NCBI GenBank assembly: GCA_949289155.1
Contig: CASEMX010000013.1
Location: forward strand, 39,065-103,064
Length of the DNA: 64,000 bases
Direction: 5' to 3'
From: an uncultured Parabacteroides sp.
GTDB taxonomy: Bacteria > Bacteroidota > Bacteroidia > Bacteroidales > Tannerellaceae
The notes under the pieces were generated by a model. The model saw only the letters and a list, made by a program, of their open reading frames with translations, made no database searches and was not told the DNA's origin. The translations under genes and the position numbers were made by a program. This document shows positions 3,359-63,727 of this stretch, piece by piece (positions within the stretch are counted from its first letter, which is position 1; each line of letters opens with the position of its first letter).

Positions 3359-6253
3359 TTAGTCTTTCAATGATTTATAAATCGTATCCTGTATGCGCGT
3401 CCGGATATTCAACGCGGACAATTTCTTATTATTCCGAGTAGGATAAACCCGATTGCATAAGAAAATATAGATTATCTGATGGTCCGGGTCAACCCAAAAG
3501 CAGGTTCCGGTAAATCCTGTATGTCCATAAACCGATGCCGGAGCCAACGCCCCACATGGCGAAACTTTACTTCCTACCTTCGGCCGGTCAAATCCCAATC
3601 CTCTGCGGCAAGTCGGACTCTTTGTTTTGGTAAATAACCGGACTGTCTCATCCGACAGATAGCGATCCCCGCCATATATACCATTATTTAATAGCAACTG
3701 AAGCACCTTTGCCAAGTCATTCGCATTTGAGAATAATCCTGCATTACCGGAAACTCCTCCCTGAAAAGCTGCCGCCTCATCATGTACATACCCGCGAATC
3801 AACTGATGCCGGACCGTTTTATCATATTCCGTAGGCACAATCAAAGAGGAATCCATTCGCGACAGCGGATTATAGGTCAAATGCCATGCCCCTAACGGTG
3901 CAAAGAAATTCTCTTGCAGGAATTGGTCCATCGGCTGATGCAGCAGGTTCTCCACCATCATCTTTAACAAGATAAAATTGACGCAACTATAACGATAGGC
4001 TTTGTTCCTCAGCTTCGAATCCTTTATCATTTGCATGATTGTATCCTGAAAAGAGCTTTTCAGATAGATATTTCTTGCCACTTGTGTCGGATAACCGGGC
4101 TTAGGCGTGGTAGAAACCAGCTCCGGTTTGAACTTTCCCTTTTCCATTGCCTTTGTATAAAAGTTAATAATCGGGACAATCCCGGACTGATGGAAGAGCA
4201 TTTCCTTAATCGTGACATTCTTTTTATTTGAATCTTTCAGTTCCGGGATGTAAGTTGCTATCTTATCCGTCAGCTTAAACTTCTTCTCGTCGTAAGCTTT
4301 CATGACGGCAAGCAATGTCCCGGCAGCTTTTGAGGCTGAAGCCAAATCATAAACCGATTCATTCGTTATCGGCTGGCGATGTTCGTAGTCATACCGTCCG
4401 AAAGAGCGGCTATACACCACCATTCCATCCTTAGCCACCAACAACTGGCAACCCGGATAGGCTTTCACCTTGATGCCCTCTTCTGCTATCCGGGAAATTT
4501 CCTCCAAACGTTCCGGATTCAGTCCGACCTCTTCCGGTTCATGATAGCCCAATCGGGTTTTCGGCGTAAAAATACCTGCGCCGGCAAAATACAATTCCGG
4601 AATCGACACCGGCAACTTCCCCTTTGCCGCAATTCCTCCGAAAATAGCTTGTGCGGCATACTGTTGCGCCAATGGCGTCCCTTCGTATGCCAATACCACC
4701 GCTTTCGCTTTAGCTATCGACTGCTTATAAGATTTGCAGAAATAGGGAATGGTGAAGAAAGTATAGACCAATTGCTTCTTTCCTGCCAATGCCCGTAGAG
4801 AAGCACTCTCCGGAATCCGTACCGTATGCACCGCGCAAAGAATCAAATCGTATTTATCCAATTTATTATAGACCTGCTGCACCTTCGCAGCGCTCATTGT
4901 CCGCGTAATCGTATAATTGTCTGCCTGAACATAGGCAGAAACAGTTTCTTCGAAGTCATCCGATACGGCATCTCCGATGGTCAGTACGGCAACTTTCGGT
5001 TGTTTCAAATCGGCAATGGGCAATATACGGTTTTCATTCTTCAAGACGGTAATTGCCTCTTCATTCAATTTGGCAGCCAACCATGCCGCATGCGCTGTGT
5101 TCAATCGTTCGGACAATCCCTTCAAGGCTATCGGCTGATAGTTATGGAGTCCGGCAATATATTTATACTTCAATATCTTCAGGCATTTGGCTTCGACATA
5201 CGACATCGGGATTGTCCCCTCCTCAACCGCTGCCTTTACTGCCCGATAGTCAGAAATCGGCGCACGTGGAGCCAGCAAGATATCATTACCCGCCAGCAAA
5301 GCCTGCACGCAGGGATTATCTGCTTTCTTCGCACTCGCCCCTTTCATCGCCAACGCATCGGTAAAGCAAAGCCCTTTGAAACCCAATTCCTTTTGCAGCA
5401 AATCGGTGACTATGGAATGAGAGAATGACGCCGCCCTGCCCTTCTGCTTCTCCAATGCCGGAACATACAAATGCCCCGTCATGACTCCTGCAAAACCCTG
5501 ACGGATATATTGGCGAAAAGGCAGCAACTCTACCGAATCCAACCGTGCCCGGTTATGATATATCGTCGGCAATGTCTCATGCGAATCGTCCGAAGTATCG
5601 CCATGTCCGGGGAAATGCTTGGCGACCGAGATGATTCCTGCCCCTTCCAATCCTTGCGAATAGGCAATTCCCTTTTCTGTCACGGCATAGGGGCTTTCAC
5701 CAAACGAGCGGATACCGATAACCGGGTTCTCTTCATTGCTATTCACATCCAAATCGGGCGCGAAGTTGATATGGATTCCCATCACATGGCACTGCCGCGC
5801 CACCTCCTCGCCATATTTCCGGATAAGCAATTTATCTTCTATCGCCCCCAGCATCATATTCTTCGGGAAACGGGTCGTCCCGCTCAGGCGCATCGACAAT
5901 CCCCATTCGCCATCCAGCGAGACAAACAACGGGATCCGTGCCTCCGCCTGCATCTGGTTTGTCAGGAACGCTTGGTCTTCCGGACGGCCTTTATGAAACA
6001 ATACCCCGCCAATCTTCTGCTCGCGCACATACCGTTTCAGTTTCTGCACATTCTGGGTACTTGTGCTCACGTCCGCCACCACCATAAACAACTGCCCTAT
6101 CCGCTCGTCCATGCTCATCGAGTCGAAGACGGAATCCGCCCAATGATTCATCGCCTCCTCATCCACATTCCGATAAAGAGTAGGCATCTGTTGGGCAGAC
6201 AAACCACTGACTGCCAACCAACAGCCAAGTAACATACCGATAATCTTATTCAT
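3359..6253 (-). CDS. GH3 beta-N-acetylglucosaminidase fused to a C-terminal serine hydrolase (beta-lactamase/AmpC-like) domain
   Basis: Signal peptide; GH3 motifs DGEWG, KHFPGHG(DT), FTDAL; C-terminal SASK (SxxK), YSCVN and GHTGFTG. Confidence 0.9.
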   Translation of the reverse strand: MNKIIGMLLGCWLAVSGLSAQQMPTLYRNVDEEAMNHWADSVFDSMSMDERIGQLFMVVADVSTSTQNVQKLKRYVREQKIGGVLFHKGRPEDQAFLTNQMQAEARIPLFVSLDGEWGLSMRLSGTTRFPKNMMLGAIEDKLLIRKYGEEVARQCHVMGIHINFAPDLDVNSNEENPVIGIRSFGESPYAVTEKGIAYSQGLEGAGIISVAKHFPGHGDTSDDSHETLPTIYHNRARLDSVELLPFRQYIRQGFAGVMTGHLYVPALEKQKGRAASFSHSIVTDLLQKELGFKGLCFTDALAMKGASAKKADNPCVQALLAGNDILLAPRAPISDYRAVKAAVEEGTIPMSYVEAKCLKILKYKYIAGLHNYQPIALKGLSERLNTAHAAWLAAKLNEEAITVLKNENRILPIADLKQPKVAVLTIGDAVSDDFEETVSAYVQADNYTITRTMSAAKVQQVYNKLDKYDLILCAVHTVRIPESASLRALAGKKQLVYTFFTIPYFCKSYKQSIAKAKAVVLAYEGTPLAQQYAAQAIFGGIAAKGKLPVSIPELYFAGAGIFTPKTRLGYHEPEEVGLNPERLEEISRIAEEGIKVKAYPGCQLLVAKDGMVVYSRSFGRYDYEHRQPITNESVYDLASASKAAGTLLAVMKAYDEKKFKLTDKIATYIPELKDSNKKNVTIKEMLFHQSGIVPIINFYTKAMEKGKFKPELVSTTPKPGYPTQVARNIYLKSSFQDTIMQMIKDSKLRNKAYRYSCVNFILLKMMVENLLHQPMDQFLQENFFAPLGAWHLTYNPLSRMDSSLIVPTEYDKTVRHQLIRGYVHDEAAAFQGGVSGNAGLFSNANDLAKVLQLLLNNGIYGGDRYLSDETVRLFTKTKSPTCRRGLGFDRPKVGSKVSPCGALAPASVYGHTGFTGTCFWVDPDHQIIYIFLCNRVYPTRNNKKLSALNIRTRIQDTIYKSLKD

Positions 6254-6995: not shown

Positions 6996-9332
6996 TTATA
7001 ATCTTACTTTAAATCGCTGCTCGTCGATACATATAATATATATGCCGCGCTGCAGACCGGTGTATTGCTTCAATCCCACTTGCGTTTCGTTCTTCATGAC
7101 TGCGCCGCTGGCTGAGATTATCGTTACTTTCTCCTCAGTCGGAGTATATACATAGATGCTTCCATCCTTCGTATAGACCTTTGCACCTTCGATGTTCTCG
7201 ATGCCGGTTGGCACTGCACCTTCGGCACGGACATAAATATCGGTGTAGATATTCTCAATGATATATTCGTTCGGGTTTTCGGTCGGCGTCAATGTCAAAT
7301 CCTCCCAATACCCAAAGAGGCTACGCTTGAACGTCAGAGCCAAGTCCGTGGTATCAAATTCTTCATCTACCTTGATGGTCACAAGCACCGACTGTCCCTC
7401 TTTCACCACATCGCGACTGAACTCAACCGTCACGCCCTCGCAGATTTCCTCTTCGTAGATGTTGTAGTATTTGGGAGCGTCCGGAACGATGCCGCCCTGT
7501 TCGTCGTCGCCTTCGTCAGGGTCAGTTGGCTCTTCGTTTTTCGTAAATTGGGCAGTAACTGTTACATCTGCGTCCGGCATGGTAAATGTATAGATATTCT
7601 CGCCGGTTAATGTGGTTTCGATTGCCTCCGTACCCACAACCGACAATCCGCCGAACGTATAGCCTTCGCCAGTTGTAACCGTGAGTGTGATTGTTTCGCC
7701 GACAATTGCCGTAGTTTTATCAGATGCAACCGTTCCGCCTTCTGTATCAACGATGGTAATTGTGTGTGCCGTTTTCTTTTGAGCATACAAGGTTATATCT
7801 TCACTTATCGCTGATTCAGAAGTATAAAGATTGCCTTCGCCATCATACCAACCTGCATTCTCTTCCAATTCCGGCAAGTTCAGATAGCCGCTGTTTGCAT
7901 ATTGCTCTGCAGCTGCCGTTTCATCATAGCTTTCATAATTTAATGTCAATTTATAAACAGCATCATCTGGTGTGAAACATAATAAAGTAGGAGATTCGGC
8001 TGGCGTGTTGCTATGGAGGTCTTGCCCGTAATTGCCTCCTGCTTTTCTTAGTTCGTAGGCTACTGTGCCGTCTATGAATTCTTCTTCAGTAGCTTTCTCT
8101 ATTTCGCCTCCTTTGTTATTATAGCTATCGTTATTATTTCCTCCAACAGCATTCACTCCTTTTTGCTGTAAATAATAGTTATTGCTAAATTTTGTATTGT
8201 TAATGCTTCCTGAGATACTTCCAACATTTACAAACGAGAGAATACCCTCAGAAACTTTTACCGTTGATTCGATCGTTCCTACATTATAACAATTAGTAAT
8301 TTCATTGCCCATCTCGTTCGCATTAATACCACCAATATATATCGCACATGTGTTGTCCTGTCCTGATACTTTTATTTCACCAGTATTATAGCAGGATGTA
8401 ATAGTAGAAGGTTTATTTGGATTGTTTCCAATTCCACTAATATACAACGTATAAAGAATCAGTGGATTTTGATTTTTGTTTCCAAATTCATTTACTGACA
8501 CATTTATAGTCCCTGTATTATATGAATTCACAATATCAATATTGGCAGATGGTTTGTCTTTGCTATTAATATTAGATATTCCACTAATAAAAATTCCACA
8601 TTGGCCATATGATTCTCCATTGTACGAAATATCATCCATTGAAACATTTATATTCCCCATATTACAACAAGACTCTATTCTTTCGTTTTCATATAAACCA
8701 CATATTCCACCAACATTGAGACTTGTGATTTTTGCTTTATCTCCTTTTATATTTATCAGCCCATCAAAAGAACATTTAACTATACTTCCGAATCCATCTA
8801 CGTTTCCGGCAATACCTCCTATATTTTTTAATTTCTCGTTTATTGAAACATCTATATAGCTATTGTCTATATGCACATTTTGTATAGTTCCAGCTATAAG
8901 TCCAAACAATCCAAGATGCTCATATTCTGATTCTATGTTTGATTTTAAATAAAGTCCGCTAATTGTATGTCCATTCCCATCAAATGTGCCATTGAAATTA
9001 GAGACGACTGCATTCTCACTTATTGGCGTCCATTCTTTCGCCGTTCCCGTAAAAACATCAGTCTCGCTTGTTGCTTTTTTATTAAAAATAATTCCAGGGT
9101 TCAAATCTATATCATGAGTCAATATAATAGTTTTCCCCTTAAAACCATCTGTCTCTTCATTCACTAACTTCGCCAATCCCGCCAATTCTTCCGCCGTAGA
9201 TATTTCGAATGTGGTTCCATTTTCTTTATACCAATCTGTATTGGCATTATCAATCCAATTTTCCTGCCCCCAAACCGCACCACTAAGCGTTGCCAAGAAC
9301 GCCATCAATAAAGTAAAAATTCTTGTCTTCAT
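6996..9332 (-). CDS. Secreted surface protein (paralog 1): signal peptide, GLUG/beta-helix repeats, InlB-B-like/Ig repeats, C-terminal T9SS-type sorting-like (DUF6383-like) domain
   Basis: Real start is MKTRIFTLLMAFLATLSGAVWG|QE at 9332 (the track start at 9473 lies in the leader). ISTAEELAGLA, FDGNGHTISGLY, repeated CYNxGxI and GGIxG; ends PTGIENIEGAKVY..GIYII..RFKVRL. Domain names come from pattern recall, not a database search. Confidence 0.75.
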   Translation of the reverse strand: MKTRIFTLLMAFLATLSGAVWGQENWIDNANTDWYKENGTTFEISTAEELAGLAKLVNEETDGFKGKTIILTHDIDLNPGIIFNKKATSETDVFTGTAKEWTPISENAVVSNFNGTFDGNGHTISGLYLKSNIESEYEHLGLFGLIAGTIQNVHIDNSYIDVSINEKLKNIGGIAGNVDGFGSIVKCSFDGLINIKGDKAKITSLNVGGICGLYENERIESCCNMGNINVSMDDISYNGESYGQCGIFISGISNINSKDKPSANIDIVNSYNTGTINVSVNEFGNKNQNPLILYTLYISGIGNNPNKPSTITSCYNTGEIKVSGQDNTCAIYIGGINANEMGNEITNCYNVGTIESTVKVSEGILSFVNVGSISGSINNTKFSNNYYLQQKGVNAVGGNNNDSYNNKGGEIEKATEEEFIDGTVAYELRKAGGNYGQDLHSNTPAESPTLLCFTPDDAVYKLTLNYESYDETAAAEQYANSGYLNLPELEENAGWYDGEGNLYTSESAISEDITLYAQKKTAHTITIVDTEGGTVASDKTTAIVGETITLTVTTGEGYTFGGLSVVGTEAIETTLTGENIYTFTMPDADVTVTAQFTKNEEPTDPDEGDDEQGGIVPDAPKYYNIYEEEICEGVTVEFSRDVVKEGQSVLVTIKVDEEFDTTDLALTFKRSLFGYWEDLTLTPTENPNEYIIENIYTDIYVRAEGAVPTGIENIEGAKVYTKDGSIYVYTPTEEKVTIISASGAVMKNETQVGLKQYTGLQRGIYIICIDEQRFKVRL

Positions 9333-9749
9333 AATATTTATGTGTTTAGTTAGTAAATAATTTAATTCAGCCGTACCGCATTTACGACTAACTAACCAAC
9401 CACTATGAAAGACAAAAAGAAAGTGCGGGCGAGTTGTTTTATTATCAAGTTGGGGGCATCGGCAAACGCCCACTATGCAGATAATTAAACAACAGCCCGC
9501 ACTCTATGCTGCAGGATATACCTATTCCTTTCAGATAAGTGTACAGCATGAGTGCAAGCATTCTTTGTTTATTATTCCTGCATAGTAAAATTTTGCCGAT
9601 TTTCCAACTTGGAATAATATCGTAAATGCTAAAACTCAGTATGTCCTTCCGCAGGATTACCCCTAATCCTCACGGAATTGCGACAAAGGTAGGGAACGCA
9701 AACGAAAATGCAAAGAAAAAGTAAAAGATATTTCAAGATTTTTATCGGA
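9333..9749 (-). promoter_or_regulatory. Conserved upstream module 1: upstream box, promoter and ~345-nt structured 5' leader
   Basis: Its reverse complement aligns with 61330-61731. Promoter TTTG (9711-9714) - N19 - TACCTTTG (9684-9691) on the minus strand. Confidence 0.8.
9445..9561 (-). CDS. Candidate leader peptide/uORF, 38 aa (MLALMLYTYLKGIGISCSIECGLLFNYLHSGRLPMPPT)
   Basis: ATG preceded by A-rich AGGAATAATAAACAAAGA; same start and frame are intact in the paralogous leader (61517-61627). Confidence 0.4.
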   Translation of the reverse strand: MLALMLYTYLKGIGISCSIECGLLFNYLHSGRLPMPPT

Positions 9750-9812: not shown

Positions 9813-10394
9813 TGTTCTTTTGCCTTGATGCAAAAGAACCAAAAAATCAAGTTGCTCCCTACTTTCTGGCTTGACCCAGAAAGTAGCAAAGAGGTCAAGG
9901 CTTACACTCCAGAGGCTACAAATTCGCATCGCTCCGCTAAAATTTCGGAAACTCGCTTCGCTCAAACAACCGAAATTTCTTCACGCTCCGCTCGGAATTT
10001 GCTTAACGCCTCTTGCGTTAGGCCAATCCTTTCCCTATTATATATATGGTATATATAACCCCTCAGTCTCGCTACGCGAGCCAGCTCCCCTAAAACAGTG
10101 GAGCTTTTCAGATAGAAGCTAAGAGGGAACCGATGCCGAAGGCGAGAGAAAGGAAAGGTCGAAGACGAGGCGGAAGGAGGAAGGGAGAAAGGATTGGCCT
10201 CGGCTGGTGAGCGTAAAGCGAACGACCGGAATGAAGCGTCCGGAAGCTCGGCTGTTTGAGCGCGAAGCGCGAGTTTCCGAGATTCCAGCGAAATGAAGGG
10301 AGAGAGTAGCGAAGCAGGCGCAGCCTTGACCTCTTTGCTACTTTCTGGGTCAAGCCAGAAAGTAGGGAACAATTTGGGTCAAGGCAAAAGAACA
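9813..10394. repeat. 582-bp imperfect palindromic intergenic element (REP/MITE-like)
   Basis: Perfect 47-bp inverted repeat at 9856-9902/10322-10368; outer 15-bp IR TGTTCTTTTGCCTTG at 9813-9827/10380-10394; inner IRs GGAAACTCGC..CTCAAAC and GGCCAATCCTTT. Confidence 0.8.
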
Positions 10395-23047: not shown

Positions 23048-23130
23048 GGGCAGTTACCAGAGTGGCCAAATGGGGCTGACTGTAACTCAGCTGGCTTACG
23101 CCTTCGGTGGTTCGAATCCATCACTGCCCA
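23048..23130 (+). tRNA. tRNA-Tyr(GTA)
   Basis: GGGCAGT/ACTGCCC acceptor, GTA anticodon, long variable arm, TTCGAAT T-loop. Confidence 0.97.
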
Positions 23131-23163: not shown

Positions 23164-23236
23164 GCGGAAGTAGCTCAGTCGATAGAGCACTAGCCTTCCA
23201 AGCTGGGGGTCGCGGGTTTGAGCCCCGTCTTCCGCT
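23164..23236 (+). tRNA. tRNA-Gly(TCC) with non-canonical A19 and U56
   Basis: GCGGAAG/CTTCCGC acceptor, TCC anticodon, U73; T-loop TTTGAGC, D-loop AGTCGATA. Confidence 0.93.
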
Positions 23237-45397: not shown

Positions 45398-45471
45398 GGC
45401 GAGATAGCTCAGCTGGTTAGAGCGCATGATTCATAATCATGAGGTCCCCGGTTCAATCCCGGGTCTCGCTA
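45398..45471 (+). tRNA. tRNA with CAT anticodon, probably elongator tRNA-Met
   Basis: GGCGAGA/TCTCGCT acceptor, CATGA-TTCATAA-TCATG anticodon arm; lacks initiator features. Ile2 not formally excluded. Confidence 0.93.
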
Positions 45472-58756: not shown

Positions 58757-59569
58757 ATGAGATTAATTATCGAACCGAATTACGAGCAGTTGTCTCAATG
58801 GGCAGCCAATTATGTTGCCGCCAAAATTAAAGCAGCCAATCCGACTGCCGAGAAACCTTTTATCTTAGGATTGCCCACCGGCTCATCGCCTTTAGGAATG
58901 TATAAGGCGTTAATCGAGCTGAATAAGAAAGGTGTCGTATCTTTCCAGAATGTTATTACCTTCAACATGGACGAATATGTAGGATTACCCAAAGAACATC
59001 CGGAAAGCTACCATTCTTTCATGTGGAATAACTTCTTCAGCCACATCGATATCAAGCCGGAGAACGTAAATATCCTGAATGGAAATGCTGAAGATATCGA
59101 GGCTGAATGTGCTGCATACGAAGCAAAAATGAAAGCTGTCGGAGGTGTCGATTTGTTCTTGGGCGGAATCGGGCCGGACGGACACATTGCGTTCAACGAA
59201 CCGGGCTCTTCGCTGGCTTCGCGTACCCGTATGAAGACATTGACAACAGATACAATCATTGCAAACTCTCGTTTCTTCGACAATGACGTCAACAAAGTTC
59301 CGAAAACTGCGGTTACTGTCGGCGTAGGTACGGTTTTGGATGCGAAAGAGGTGCTGATTATGGTGAACGGACATAACAAAGCACGCGCTTTGCAGCAAGC
59401 GGTCGAAGGCGCTGTCAATCAGATGTGGACAATCACTGCTCTGCAGCTCCATCCGAAAGGCATTATCGTTTGCGATGACGCAGCTTGTGCAGAATTGAAG
59501 GTTGGAACGTACAATTATTTCAAAGATATCGAGAAAGACCATCTTTGTCCTTGCTCGCTGCTGAAATAA
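58757..59569 (+). CDS. nagB: Glucosamine-6-phosphate deaminase
   Basis: [15 protein letters not shown] and [14 protein letters not shown] motifs. Confidence 0.97.
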
Positions 59570-59676: not shown

Positions 59677-60852
59677 CTATTCTTCATACAGTAAATACTT
59701 TTTCCGCATGGCCTTATACGCATCCAAGTCCGATTGCCAGGAAGCGCGAATCTCCTCTTCGCTCAATCCTTCGATAATCTGCTTCCGAAGCTGGTCAGTC
59801 CCTGCCAACAAATCAAACCATTTTTCGCGGGAAAAGAAGAACTTGGCGTCGTTGCCCGATTTATGATAGAAATCCAACACAAACCGCAACGTCAATCCGC
59901 CTTCAAAAGGATATTCCTGCAGGTTCACCCCGTAACAGCATTTGTTCTTCTGCTGCGGATTCATATCGAAGCCCGGCAAAGAGGTCGGGGTAAAGGTATA
60001 ATCGCCGAACTTCTCGTCCGGATAACCAATCATCTGGAAAGGATGGTACGTCCCGCGGCCTATGCTGAAAGGAGTTGCCTCGAAAAAGCACAGCGAAGGA
60101 TACAGGCGGACGGACTGGTCGTTCGGAAGGTTAGGCGAAGGCTTGACCGGTAACCAATAAGGGTCGCCATGCTTCCAATTCAACATCGTCACAACCTGCA
60201 GCTTACAAGAATTCGCCCCGCTTTTCAGCCAGCCCTCTCCATTAATCATCCGGGCTAACTCGCCTACCGTCAGTCCATGCAGCAGCGGTATCGGGTCGGT
60301 CCCGACAAACGAACGGAATCCCGGCTTGCGTACCGGTCCATCCACAAAGTCGTTTGGGTTCGGGCGGTCCAATACGATAAACTCTTTCCCATTCTCGGCA
60401 CACGATTCCATCACATAGTGCATCGTACTGATATATGTGTAAAAGCGCGCGCCTACGTCCTGAATATCAAAGACAACTACGTCGATATTCTTCAGTTGCT
60501 TTGCCGTCGGAGCCTTCTGTTTTCCATAAATCGAGACTATCGGGACACCCGTACGCACATCCTTGCTGTCCGCTATCTCTGCTCCGGCATCTGCTGTCCC
60601 ACGAAAACCATGCTCCGGCGCAAATACACATTCGACCCGAATGCCCGCTTCTACCAAAGCATCCAACAAATGAAGCTGACGGTCATGCAAAACAGAGGTT
60701 TGATTGACCACCAATCCTACCCTCTTCCCTTCGAGCAGCGCCGTAACCTCATCCAACCGCTCTGCGCCCAATACAATCTCGGCACTCTTCTGCGCGACGG
60801 CCATCCCGACAAGGCAAAGCATAAAGCCAATAAATAAAACAATCTTTCTCAT
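59677..60852 (-). CDS. DUF1343 / exo-beta-N-acetylmuramidase NamZ family
   Basis: Signal peptide; FAPEHGFRG, DIQDVGARFYTY, LDRPNP, HGLTVGELA and PSPNLP motifs. Confidence 0.9.
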   Translation of the reverse strand: MRKIVLFIGFMLCLVGMAVAQKSAEIVLGAERLDEVTALLEGKRVGLVVNQTSVLHDRQLHLLDALVEAGIRVECVFAPEHGFRGTADAGAEIADSKDVRTGVPIVSIYGKQKAPTAKQLKNIDVVVFDIQDVGARFYTYISTMHYVMESCAENGKEFIVLDRPNPNDFVDGPVRKPGFRSFVGTDPIPLLHGLTVGELARMINGEGWLKSGANSCKLQVVTMLNWKHGDPYWLPVKPSPNLPNDQSVRLYPSLCFFEATPFSIGRGTYHPFQMIGYPDEKFGDYTFTPTSLPGFDMNPQQKNKCCYGVNLQEYPFEGGLTLRFVLDFYHKSGNDAKFFFSREKWFDLLAGTDQLRKQIIEGLSEEEIRASWQSDLDAYKAMRKKYLLYEE

Positions 60853-60919: not shown

Positions 60920-60991
60920 AAAGAAAAGAACCAAAAGTTCCCTACTTTCTGGCTTGCACCTTTTGGTTCTTTTGCATCAAGGCAAAAGAAC
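60920..60991. repeat. Fragment of the same palindromic family as 9813-10394
   Basis: GTTCCCTACTTTCTGGCTTG (60937-60956) and GGTTCTTTTGCATCAAGGCAAAAGAAC (60965-60991, reverse complement of 9814-9840). Confidence 0.75.
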
Positions 60992-61329: not shown

Positions 61330-61731
61330 CCAATAAAAATCTTGAAATATCTTTTACATTTCCTTTGCTTTTAGCTTTTAGATGTTTACCTTTGTCGCAA
61401 TTCCGTGAGGATTAGGGGTAATCCTGCGGGAGGACATACTGAGTTTTAGCATTTACGATATTATTCCTACAACTAAAAATCGGCAAAATTTTTATCACAG
61501 AGGAATAATAAACAGGATGCTTGCACTCGTGCTGTACACTTATCTGAAAGGAGAAGGTATATCCTACAGCATAGAGTGCGGGCTGTTGTTTCTTTATCTC
61601 TGTGATGGGCGTTTGCCGATGCCTTAGTTGTAGATAATAAGCAACTTGCCCGCACTTTCTTTTTGTCTTTCATAGTGATTGGTTAGTTAGTCGTAGATGC
61701 GGCACGGCTGAATTATTTACTAACTAAACAC
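61330..61731 (+). promoter_or_regulatory. Conserved upstream module 2: upstream box, promoter and structured leader
   Basis: TTTG (61364-61367) - N19 - TACCTTTG (61387-61394); aligns with the reverse complement of 9343-9749. Confidence 0.8.
61517..61627 (+). CDS. Candidate leader peptide/uORF, 36 aa (MLALVLYTYLKGEGISYSIECGLLFLYLCDGRLPMP)
   Basis: 30/36 residues identical to the uORF at 9445-9561; same ATG position. Confidence 0.4.
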   Translation: MLALVLYTYLKGEGISYSIECGLLFLYLCDGRLPMP

Positions 61732-63727
61732 TGGTCGGGAATGCGGTTTGGGGCAGGAAACCACGACAACTCCAGAAACAGAAACTATCGACGGCAAAAC
61801 TTTCTACTTATTGGGCACTAAAGAGGATTTGAAATGGTTTCAAGAACATGTAAGCGAATCTGAAGATAATGCCAGTGCTTGTGCGAAGCTGACGGATAAT
61901 ATTGATTTGGGGAATGAGGAATGGGAGCCGATAATGTATAAAGAAACTGCTTCAACAGGAATTAGTGTAAATGTAAAATATACAGGTACGTTCGATGGTA
62001 ATGGGAAAACTATAAAGGGGCTTTATATTAAGAAAGAAATAAGTGGTTTAGATCCTTCAACTATATTAGAAGTTCTTTCTTCCCTATATAATGGCTTGTT
62101 TGGAGTTGTAGGAGATTTAAATGCCACGGCTTTTCCCTCTGATGGTGAAGTAAAGAATTTAACTGTCGAAGGGAAAATGGAATGTTCTACTCCAGTAATG
62201 GGAATGGGTGGAATATGTGGATTAAATAAAGGCACAATCCAGAATTGTATAAATAAAATTACTTTAGTAGGCACAGGCTCAACCAAAGGTGCGACCTCTA
62301 CGAACTATATAGGTGGAATCTGTAATTTAAATCAAGGTATTATAAACAATTGCACTAATGAAGGAAGTATTACCACGTCTGTTTACGCTGCTGGAGGGAT
62401 ATGTGGTGCAAATAACGGTGTTATCGAAAAATGTTACAATAAAGGAGCAATTACAGAGTCCGAATCTGGCCTTGCTGCACTTGGCGGAATATGTGGAGTT
62501 ATAGCCGGGGACGAGAATGAGAATAAAGATTTTAAAATCAATAATTGTTTTAACACAGGCGTACTAACCGCAAATGAAGGAAGAGCTTCAGGAATTTGTA
62601 ACCTTACCACCGATGCTATAAAAACGATAGTTCTGACTAATTGCCATAACTATGGAAATATAAAAGGGCAGTCTGAAAAGAAAGCAGGAATTTGTGTATT
62701 TAATAATAGCAATTATGCTATAGATGAAGAAAAAACAACTATATCAAACAATTATTATTTAGAGAGCACTGTAGAAACAGGTTGGTTATATAGCTATGAA
62801 GCAAGCGTAACTCCCAACGACCAGCCTGGGCAAGTCGAAGCTAAGTCAGAAGATGCCTTTGCCAACGGCGAAGTCCTCTATCTCTTGCAGCAAAACAATG
62901 CCGGGGTTTGGGAGCAAACCATAGGCACAGATGATTATCCGGTATTCGAAGCGACGAGCACACCATCTACTGTTTATCAAGTCACCTTCGACTACAACTA
63001 CGAAGGCAGTCCCGAAGCAATTATATATTATGTAGAAGAAAGCGAATCGGTAACGGTTCCGACAATGACTCGCGAGGGCTATACCTTTACGAATTGGTCA
63101 ACCGATGCCGCCGGTGAAAACGTAGTTGAAATATCCGGCTCGATTACTCCGGATGCAAGTGTTACCTACTACGCCCAGTGGCAAGCCGAGCAGACAGAAG
63201 AACCCGGTGACGACGACGACAATCCGGGCGGCATCGTTCCGGACGCTCCCAAATACTATAATATATATGAAGAGGAAATCTGCGAGGGCGTAACGGTTGA
63301 GTTCAGCCGCGATGTGGTGAAAGAGGGACAATCGGTGCTGGTAACCGTGAAGGTCGATGAGGAATTTGATGCAACGAAGATGACGCTGAAGTTCAAACGC
63401 AGCCTGTTTGGATACTGAGAGGATTTGACATTGACGCCGACCGAGAACCCGAATGAATATATCATCCAGAATATCTATACCGATATTTACGTCCGCGCGG
63501 AGGGAGCCGTGCCAACCGGCATCGAACAAATCGCCGGCGCGAAGGTTTATACGAAAGACGGCAACATCTATGTACAAACCCCAACGCAAGAGCAGGTGCA
63601 GATTATCTCAGTCTCTGGCGCAGTGCTGAAGAACGAGCAGCAAATCGGACTGAAACAGTACACCGGACTGCAGCGCGGTATATATATTATAGGTATAGGC
63701 GAGCAGCGGTTTAAAGTAAGATTATAA
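61732..63727 (+). pseudogene. Surface-protein paralog 2, lacking start codon and most of the signal peptide, with in-frame TGA at 63416-63418
   Basis: The leader joins directly to CTGGTCGGGAATGCGGTTTGGGGCAG (signal-peptide tail, G4 instead of G5). The 63227-63727 C-terminus matches paralog 1 except FGY-TGA-EDL versus FGY-W-EDL. Confidence 0.75.

Follow-up and report, generated by a model that had tools for sequence, protein, structure and literature searches.

Background

Surface-protein regulation in Bacteroidota is mostly ascribed to DNA inversion and to NusG-like factors, and to our knowledge few attenuators or other cis-regulatory RNAs acting on termination have been described in this phylum. 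Metastable folds, and RNA pairs in which kissing loops grow into extended duplexes, are known from ColE1 RNA I/RNA II and from the hok mRNA. Antitermination by the NusG-like protein UpxY takes place in the 5' untranslated regions (UTRs) of Bacteroides capsule loci, in the account available to us (Chatzidaki-Livanis et al. 2009, cited in PMC12118408), and the FopS RNAs of Bacteroidaceae, 65-70 nt long, act in trans via a conserved 5' seed (PMC11697453). Here we describe a family of ~270-nt structured 5' leader RNAs that occurs in multiple copies in Parabacteroides, two of which lie in a 64,000-nt stretch of DNA from an uncultured Parabacteroides sp. (GCA_949289155.1, contig CASEMX010000013.1). 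This stretch, hereafter the window, corresponds to positions 39065-103064 of contig C13 in a 2.88-Mb, 75-contig assembly; leader copy 1 occupies 9333-9749 (-) and copy 2 61330-61735 (+).

We consider the leader, with a probability of roughly 0.7, to be a cis-acting two-state transcription attenuator, that is, a terminator/antiterminator device with its own housekeeping-type promoter, and its most likely role is that of an on/off switch before large surface-protein genes. The two folds on which this reading is built are conserved, covary, share a strand, belong to the RNA of the sense strand and are nearly isoenergetic.

Anatomy of the leader

A preliminary description of this DNA had proposed a promoter followed by a series of stems (in copy 2, on the plus strand, P1 at 61408-61425, P2 at 61459-61510, P3 at 61531-61570 and P4 at 61575-61656, followed directly by TTCTTTTTGTCTTT), and the promoter, the P1-P4 stems and the T-run are all found at the corresponding places in both copies. 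What had been missed is an inverted repeat of ~60 nt, formed by an element X, whose local fold is P2, and an element Y, which lies inside P4; P4 as a whole consists of region 3, Y and region 4. An ungapped inverted-repeat finder detected X/Y partly in copy 1 and failed to detect it in copy 2. The segments of X are designated a, v1, c, v2 and a', and those of Y a'', v2', c', v1' and a'''. In 5' to 3' order of the RNA, the parts of the leader are as follows.

Promoter of Bacteroidota type, -33 TTTG and -7 TACCTTTG (pattern match): copy 1 9684-9714 (-), copy 2 61364-61394 (+)
P0/P1, 5' hairpin: copy 1 9645-9677 (-), UUCCG/CGGAA around AGGAUUA-GGGG-UAAUCCU; copy 2 61401-61433 (+)
Region 0: copy 1 9620-9629 (-), GCAUUUACGA; copy 2 61449-61458 (+)
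Element X, copy 1: 9565-9619 (-), with a, v1 9604-9610, c core 9592-9600, v2 9578-9586 and a'
Element X, copy 2: 61459-61514 (+), with v1 61467-61476 and v2 61494-61502
Region 2, putative antiterminator strand: copy 1 9550-9562 (-), AAUGCUUGCACUC; copy 2 61516-61528 (+)
P3, hairpin at the tip of the long hairpin: copy 1 9506-9549 (-), copy 2 61529-61572 (+)
Region 3, strand common to antiterminator and terminator: copy 1 9495-9504 (-), GAGUGCGGGC; copy 2 61574-61583 (+)
Element Y, copy 1: 9433-9494 (-), with a'', v2' 9472-9480, c' core 9458-9466, v1' 9447-9453 and a'''
Element Y, copy 2: 61584-61645 (+), with v2' 61598-61606 and v1' 61624-61633
Region 4, putative terminator 3' arm: copy 1 9422-9430 (-), GCCCGCACU; copy 2 61648-61656 (+)
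U-run, putative terminator tail: copy 1 9408-9421 (-), copy 2 61657-61670 (+)
P5, hairpin around region 5: copy 1 9344-9397 (-), GGUUAGUUAG/CUAACUAAAC, just 5' of the start codon; copy 2 61681-61729 (+)
Region 5: copy 1 9378-9387 (-), UCGUAAAUGC; copy 2 61691-61700 (+)
Start codon of the gene behind copy 1: 9332-9330 (-)

The promoters of the two leaders are two of the four matches to TTTG-N19-TACCTTTG in the window, where 1.3 would be expected in a pattern scan, and the promoter is kept in all copies of this genome. As had been proposed, the leader is far better conserved than the genes it precedes: the copies are 85% identical over ~410 nt, whereas the upstream DNA and the mature parts of the encoded proteins cannot be aligned. 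The sense RNA of copy 1 folds with -99.6 kcal/mol (z = -7.0 relative to dinucleotide shuffles). The apical part of P3 varies in length among members.

Two conserved folds with a common strand

Covariation was counted in an alignment of 73 sequences (MAFFT), the "cells" of the counts being the sequence-by-pair entries of the helices. In the first of the two folds (ON), X pairs with Y. The v1 and v2 segments are unrelated between the two window copies, yet each is exactly complementary to v1' or v2' of the same copy, and the same complementarity is present in 70 other members. The differences between copies, which had been thought to fall in loops or to preserve pairing, do keep pairing, but they do not represent free loop variation, as the variable stretches of P2 are precisely those with complements inside P4. 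The X:Y duplex has a mean energy of -41 kcal/mol for cognate partners and of -21 kcal/mol when X is combined with the Y of another copy. RNAalifold selects this fold unaided, and in the refined structure 92.5% of cells are paired, compared to 77% with shuffled partners and 36-46% with slid partner columns. Both sides of the pair have changed in 687 cells, versus 203 +/- 17 in shuffles, and none of 500 shuffles reached the observed value on four measures, including the number of pair types, a count that is rarely inflated by relatedness alone. Region 2 (GCUUGCRCUC) pairs with region 3 (GAGYGCGGGC), the 5' arm of the terminator, over 10 bp that are 98.6% paired and include two invariant U·G wobbles, and the merged product of X:Y, 2:3 and P3 is a single hairpin of ~95 bp. 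Covariation, named as a check in the preliminary description, is thus strong in this alignment.

The second fold (OFF), which contains the stems originally drawn, is conserved as well, although it is only one of the two. Here 82.8% of cells are paired and 302 carry double changes, versus 116 in shuffles. The local a:a' stem of X, i.e. P2, is 99% paired. The terminator base formed by regions 3 and 4 (AGYGCGGGC/GCCCGCRCU) is 94% paired and covaries, with region 4 matching region 3 by Watson-Crick pairs throughout, and a U-run follows in all 73 aligned members, so that P4 stands as a conserved, covarying candidate terminator stem. This GC-rich stem with its U-run lies between promoter and start codon and ends 80-100 nt before the ATG. 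The local c' stem of Y, which can form only in the OFF fold, covaries too (C:G in 52 sequences, U:A in 18).

The two folds are tied together by region 3, and this is reflected in three-way covariation among regions 2, 3 and 4: in alignment columns 171/272/355 the combination G-C-G occurs in 41 sequences, A-U-A in 30 and G-U-A in 2, and in columns 169/274/353 G-C-G occurs in 69 and A-U-A in 3. A competing antiterminator pairing beside a conserved terminator is what an attenuator requires. Furthermore, hardly any variation is seen in the segments that have two partners (regions 0, 2, 3 and 4 and all four a segments), whereas those with a single partner (v1, v2 and the P1 stem) vary freely with compensation; P1 is 96% paired, and all five of its pairs have changed on both sides, with up to six pair types. 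This is the pattern expected of a two-state RNA, and it accounts for the apparent hypervariability without a diversifying mechanism. Active diversification of v1 and v2, which we considered separately, is unlikely, as several species share v sequences at apparently orthologous loci, and equal variability is seen in the P1 stem, which is unrelated to X and Y.

The only recurrent unpaired motif of the leader is the AGNG loop of P1, and almost all conserved columns have one or two pairing partners. Of the three options raised in the preliminary description (an attenuator, a riboswitch or an antiterminator-controlled leader), a metabolite riboswitch appears the least likely, since base pairing explains nearly all conserved nucleotides; the remainder of that interpretation is supported by the existence of the competing antiterminator pairing.

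Strand, energetics and folding order

Among the non-canonical cells, G·U outnumbers A·C by 460 to 34 in the long-range helices, by 195 to 6 in the local and terminator helices and by 47 to 4 in P1. This excess of 10-30 to 1 indicates a sense-strand RNA and not a DNA inversion site or an antisense transcript; the antisense strand of copy 1 folds with -87.4 kcal/mol, which is 12 kcal/mol less stable than its sense RNA.

These counts bear on an alternative in which X and Y are a DNA element, either the inverted repeats of an invertible segment, like the phase-variable promoters of Bacteroidales, or a cruciform or recombination site. Inverted repeats 60 nt long, a family of surface-protein genes with constant ends and variable middles, and the fact that phase variation by inversion is common in Bacteroidales (PMC12118408, PMC7641763) would all fit such an element. 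However, the promoter of copy 1 (9684-9714) lies upstream of both X and Y, with no match to TTTG..TAnnTTTG between them. A pattern for the inverted state, applied to assemblies of 79 species, gave four hits, each of them a normal element read on its reverse strand, leaving no true inversions against ~150 elements in normal orientation. No recombinase was detected among the Pfam-scanned neighbours of the two window copies (a GH43 gene; NamZ and a glucosamine-6-phosphate-isomerase-family gene), and a G·U to A·C ratio of 460 to 34 on the sense strand is not expected of DNA repeats. As far as assemblies can show, promoter position, orientation counts, neighbours and G·U bias lead us to reject an inverton, and a DNA element of any of these kinds appears extremely improbable.

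Constrained folding of the 73 members gave mean energies of -95.7 kcal/mol for the ON fold (2:3 enforced) and -90.8 kcal/mol for the OFF fold (3:4 enforced), a difference of 4.9 +/- 6.8 kcal/mol; on a scale of ~95 kcal/mol the two are predicted to be nearly isoenergetic. The ON hairpin is the predicted minimum free energy (MFE) structure in 55 of the 73 members, which could also mean that the long, near-perfect X:Y duplex of ~95 bp is constitutive and serves RNA processing or stability, as a site for RNase III or another nuclease or as a stabilizer of the mRNA 5' end, with the terminator-like fold devoid of function. Duplexes of this length are typical RNase III substrates, and stabilizers typically have a covarying hairpin at the very 5' end. 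Such a role leaves unexplained why a, a', a'' and a''' are also compatible with local hairpins, why the local c' stem covaries, and why region 4 and the U-run are kept in 73 of 73 members with three-way covariation; we consider it improbable.

The MFE structures of growing transcripts suggest a folding order for the two-state attenuator. P2 is predicted to form first, the 2:3 helix once region 3 is out, and P2 then opens and X:Y zips up when v2' emerges; in some copies the MFE structure flips to the terminator only on emergence of region 4. In the OFF state, X would fold on itself (P2), closed by GCAUUU:AAAUGC, P3 would form, and region 3 (GAGYGCGGGC) together with Y would pair with region 4 (GCCCGCRCU), so that the long GC-based hairpin and the U-run would constitute an intrinsic terminator; transcription would stop after ~265 nt, presumably at the U-run. 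In the ON state, region 2 (GCUUGCRCUC) would capture region 3 and Y would pair over its full length with X (a:a''', v1:v1', c:c', v2:v2', a':a''), giving the ~95-bp hairpin and leaving region 4 single-stranded, and the polymerase would read into the gene. In the read-through RNA, region 0 would then pair with region 5, beside the hairpin that precedes the start codon. The choice between the states would be made during transcription of Y. In the X hairpin, the v2 and v1 loops are single-stranded and may act as toeholds for invasion by Y, which would make read-through the kinetic default. Expression would be turned off by a factor that holds X closed or masks the v loops, be it a protein, a further RNA or the rate of elongation.

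Several observations weigh against this scheme. The alignment contains no conserved unpaired pocket and no conserved leader peptide, and no regulator is linked to the loci: the genome has two NusG-family genes (contigs C36 and C53), neither adjacent to a leader. A MAFFT alignment of related paralogues inflates shuffle statistics, for which the slid-partner control and the pair-type counts are only a partial remedy, and thermodynamic predictions are approximate for RNAs of such length. Finally, P4 escapes a simple terminator scan with a loop limit of 8 nt, as a substructure of 65 nt takes the place of its "loop".

From the terminator to the start codon

Region 0 has two alternative partners, the AAAUGC at the start of region 2, with which it is paired in the terminator-constrained fold, and region 5, which is complementary to it and lies 30-45 nt past the U-run. 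The variable tails of the 0:5 helix covary between subgroups (ACGA/UCGU, ACGAAG/CUUCGU, ACGGAG/CUCCGU), and its mean energy is -11.0 kcal/mol for cognate pairs versus -6.3 kcal/mol in shuffles. The whole segment between the terminator and the start codon is structured (mean z = -2.2), with P5 ending 10-20 nt before the AUG. At three loci (L021, L025, L038), a second canonical terminator-like hairpin, GCAGACCG...CGGTCTGC followed by a T-run, is inserted between the leader terminator and region 5, which is kept ~110 nt downstream.

Region 2 holds an invariant AUG, the potential start of an upstream open reading frame (uORF). The fold could accordingly be decided by a ribosome translating this uORF (MLAL...), as in leader-peptide attenuation, and the A-rich context of the AUG as well as the 36-38 codons that are open in both window copies, running into Y, would suit this role. 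Across 70+ members, however, the length of the uORF ranges from 4 to 80 codons, and indels disrupt the frame; nor is there a conserved ORF on either strand of the leader. Besides, the AUG is base-paired in both folds, and its pairing with region 0 already explains its invariance. Control by a leader peptide is therefore, in our view, very improbable.

A family confined to Parabacteroides

Although the preliminary description was right that the leader is duplicated, in that both window copies are real, they are not an isolated pair: the genome has 14 clear copies, of which 10 belong to subfamily A and 4 to subfamily B, and 3 weak ones. A strict core pattern applied to one genome per prokaryotic species found 49 loci, 47 of them in Parabacteroides, with carriers that include P. 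gordonii, P. segnis, sp. An277, sp. ASD2025 and many metagenome-assembled genomes (MAGs). In a genus-wide scan the leader is present in 28 of 79 Parabacteroides species, in ~150 copies and in up to 23 copies per genome. When 24 further families of the order were each represented by one genome, BLAST returned a single 25-nt match. The leader had not been recognized as a named Rfam family, and indeed Rfam 15 gave no match to it in the window and seven further loci, either at gathering thresholds or at E <= 10; the best sub-threshold scores on leaders are 15-23 bits, compared to thresholds of 40-100. The sole Rfam matches in the window are three tRNA genes (23048-23130, 23164-23236 and 45398-45471). 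Our literature search found no description of the leader either. Judged by its sequences, this appears to be a real, previously undescribed and genus-restricted family of two-state leader RNAs.

Some leaders are arranged in tandem. On MAG contig CALVFH010000158.1 (loci L034/L053, ~2000-3400 in L053), four complete promoter-leader-terminator units follow one another with a period of ~330 nt. In units 1-3, X and Y are mismatched, and the terminator fold is predicted to be favoured by 10-14 kcal/mol, which would lock these units in it; none of the three has a gene behind it, and the fourth unit alone is followed by one. Pairing in trans within this array was considered and discarded, as a comparison by eye showed no match between the mismatched loops of units 1-3 and those of the fourth unit. 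Two-unit tandems are present at L022, L023 and L030.

A unit with its own promoter and terminator, occurring also without a gene as in this array, might be mainly the gene for a trans-acting small RNA (sRNA) of ~265 nt, with downstream read-through as a secondary matter, and multi-copy sRNA families are known in Bacteroidales, e.g., FopS (PMC11697453). Yet in this genome, and in most other cases, the copies lie at a fixed distance 5' of an ORF, conservation continues through P5 to the start codon and signal peptide, and we see no conserved single-stranded seed; the tandem units that lack a gene, with their mismatched X and Y, look like decaying duplicates. Moreover, there is covariation in the 0:5 helix, a pairing that only read-through RNA can form, and together with the structured segment before the AUG this suggests that the read-through RNA is a selected product, which argues against a pure sRNA gene. 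A unit that is primarily an sRNA gene thus seems unlikely, whereas an sRNA role as a second function of the leader is possible.

Under the two-state attenuator reading, the v1 and v2 segments could, in addition, be the "addresses" of the loci, toeholds that allow each of 10-23 co-expressed leaders to recognize only its own partner. We offer this idea with considerable reservation. If it were correct, paralogues would be insulated from each other, a terminated leader could act back in trans, but solely on nascent transcripts from its own locus, and the leader would be a ligand-free strand-invasion riboregulator whose specificity is programmable and whose targets are an entire family of surface-protein genes.

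Downstream genes and genomic neighbourhood

An ATG is found ~80-100 nt after the leader in 12 of the 14 clear copies of this genome. The products of eleven of these 12 genes are large (516-1345 aa), carry a signal peptide and have a C-terminal domain in common; the remaining gene, on contig C25, encodes a 384-aa lipoprotein with no Pfam match. The shared domain is DUF6383 (PF19910; E = 1e-25) in subfamily B, and it matches the same family weakly, below the cut-off, in subfamily A (E = 0.003). The middle parts of the proteins contain GLUG or InlB B-repeat domains or no known domains. By eye, the C-terminal domains resemble type IX secretion system (T9SS) sorting domains, but no NCBIfam match was obtained and assignment as T9SS cargo was not retained. 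The signal peptides (9264-9332 (-) and its paralogues) end in ...VWG/QE or similar, so that the mature proteins start with Gln, which fits the "Q-rule" for proteins exported in Bacteroidetes (PMC10653852).

The association of leader and domain is not strict in either direction. The genome has 32 ORFs with the shared C-terminal domain, and the leader is directly upstream of 12 of them, or 13 if the broken gene of copy 2 is included; others have different leaders, which have only the final section in common with it. Across the genus, DUF6383 is present in 72 of 79 species and the leader in 28 of 79. Conversely, a divergent subgroup of leaders, which lack region 5, precedes BspA-type leucine-rich repeat (LRR) proteins, dynamin-family GTPases and other proteins without signal peptides. 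Hence the original designation, a leader for surface-protein genes, holds for most copies in this genome but not for all of the divergent subgroup, and these targets suggest that the leader is a portable regulatory cassette and not strictly a surface-protein leader. Dynamin-family GTPase genes follow the divergent leaders L022 and L089, one of them in a MAG labelled Phocaeicola vulgatus, and other genes without signal peptides follow L020, L023 and L030; in all five leaders, purine-rich, GGAGG-like stretches take the place of region 5 and P5.

Genes of note around the two window copies are the following.

3359-6253 (-): GH3 and beta-lactamase-type domain fusion, 964 aa
6996-9332 (-): gene downstream of copy 1, encoding a 778-aa secreted protein with signal peptide (...VWG/QE), InlB B-repeat and a weak DUF6383-like C-terminal domain
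58757-59569 (+): glucosamine-6-phosphate-isomerase-family gene (Pfam), beside copy 2
59677-60852 (-): exo-beta-N-acetylmuramidase (NamZ; Pfam), beside copy 2
61748-63727 (+): remnant of the gene downstream of copy 2, with no ATG and an in-frame TGA stop at 63416-63418

A GH43 gene (Pfam) lies beside copy 1, and cell-wall sugar recycling functions flank both surface-protein loci. Although little of the signal peptide is left in the copy 2 gene, the leader in front of it is intact, and X and Y are complementary there. A third copy, ~3 kb upstream of the window start (contig C13:35891-36433), has the v2 sequence of copy 2, a deletion inside X and no ATG. Copy 2 and this third copy could be independently disabled copies or silent cassettes.

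The genome has 26 occurrences of a palindrome resembling repetitive extragenic palindromic (REP) elements, GTTCTTTT-N10-AAAAGAAC, whose centre is of the TCAAG type (in the window at 9814-9839 and 60966-60991); several leader copies have one on their upstream side, no more than a few hundred bases away. Another palindrome, CTTTCTGG..CCAGAAAG, is found eight times, and further palindromes are present at 9850-10000.

Comparison with known systems

The surface proteins behind the leaders are likely to shape the contacts of gut Parabacteroides with the host, with phage and with neighbouring bacteria. To the modes of regulation already described for such proteins, the family would add another layer, in which an RNA switch, with as many as 23 copies in one genome, precedes large, variable surface proteins of the DUF6383, InlB-repeat and BspA types. 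Its design is unusual in that two complementary hairpins would make a terminator when apart and an antiterminator when merged. The many natural compensatory variants provide a ready system for studying co-transcriptional strand invasion, and the architecture could be a template for orthogonal synthetic switches in Bacteroidales.

The closest functional parallel is offered by the classical attenuators and antiterminator leaders of the trp, pyr and bgl/sac type. These likewise have a promoter-proximal leader with a GC-rich hairpin and U-run before the gene, an upstream strand that competes for the 5' arm of the terminator and a strand still further upstream that sequesters the competitor, a four-region logic that is matched here by regions 0/a, 2, 3 and 4. 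In contrast to them, the Parabacteroides leader has no conserved leader peptide and no recognizable RAT, TRAP or PyrR-type protein site, its competing fold is a ~95-bp hairpin built from two complementary hairpins of ~60 nt with copy-specific segments, and it is present in Bacteroidota in up to 23 copies per genome. With riboswitch expression platforms it shares bistable, nearly isoenergetic terminator and antiterminator folds between which the decision is made, or in our case would be made, co-transcriptionally. Unlike riboswitches, it has no evident ligand-binding aptamer, as its conserved nucleotides are almost all in helices, and it matches no Rfam riboswitch.

Within the same order, the UpxY-controlled capsule loci, in the cited account of them, resemble the present family in their long 5' UTRs before surface-structure genes, in the use of premature termination as control and in forming multi-locus families. 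According to that account, each capsule locus carries its own UpxY as first gene, whereas the leader loci have no linked NusG paralogue (two NusG-family genes for at least 14 loci) and the Parabacteroides RNA itself offers the antiterminator fold. FopS and GibS are likewise multi-copy non-coding RNAs of Bacteroidales that are tied to the control of outer-surface proteins and have canonical sigma-ABfr promoters (PMC11697453), but the leader is ~265 nt long, has another architecture and shows no likeness to them in sequence or structure, the R1' seed being set apart by its description rather than letter by letter. With ColE1 RNA I/RNA II and hok the likeness is one of general mechanism only: complementary loops (here c:c') and internal segments merge into a long duplex, and the order of transcription sets the first fold. 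The distinguishing property of the Parabacteroides leader is that both partners lie in cis on one RNA and that the proposed output of their pairing is the control of termination.

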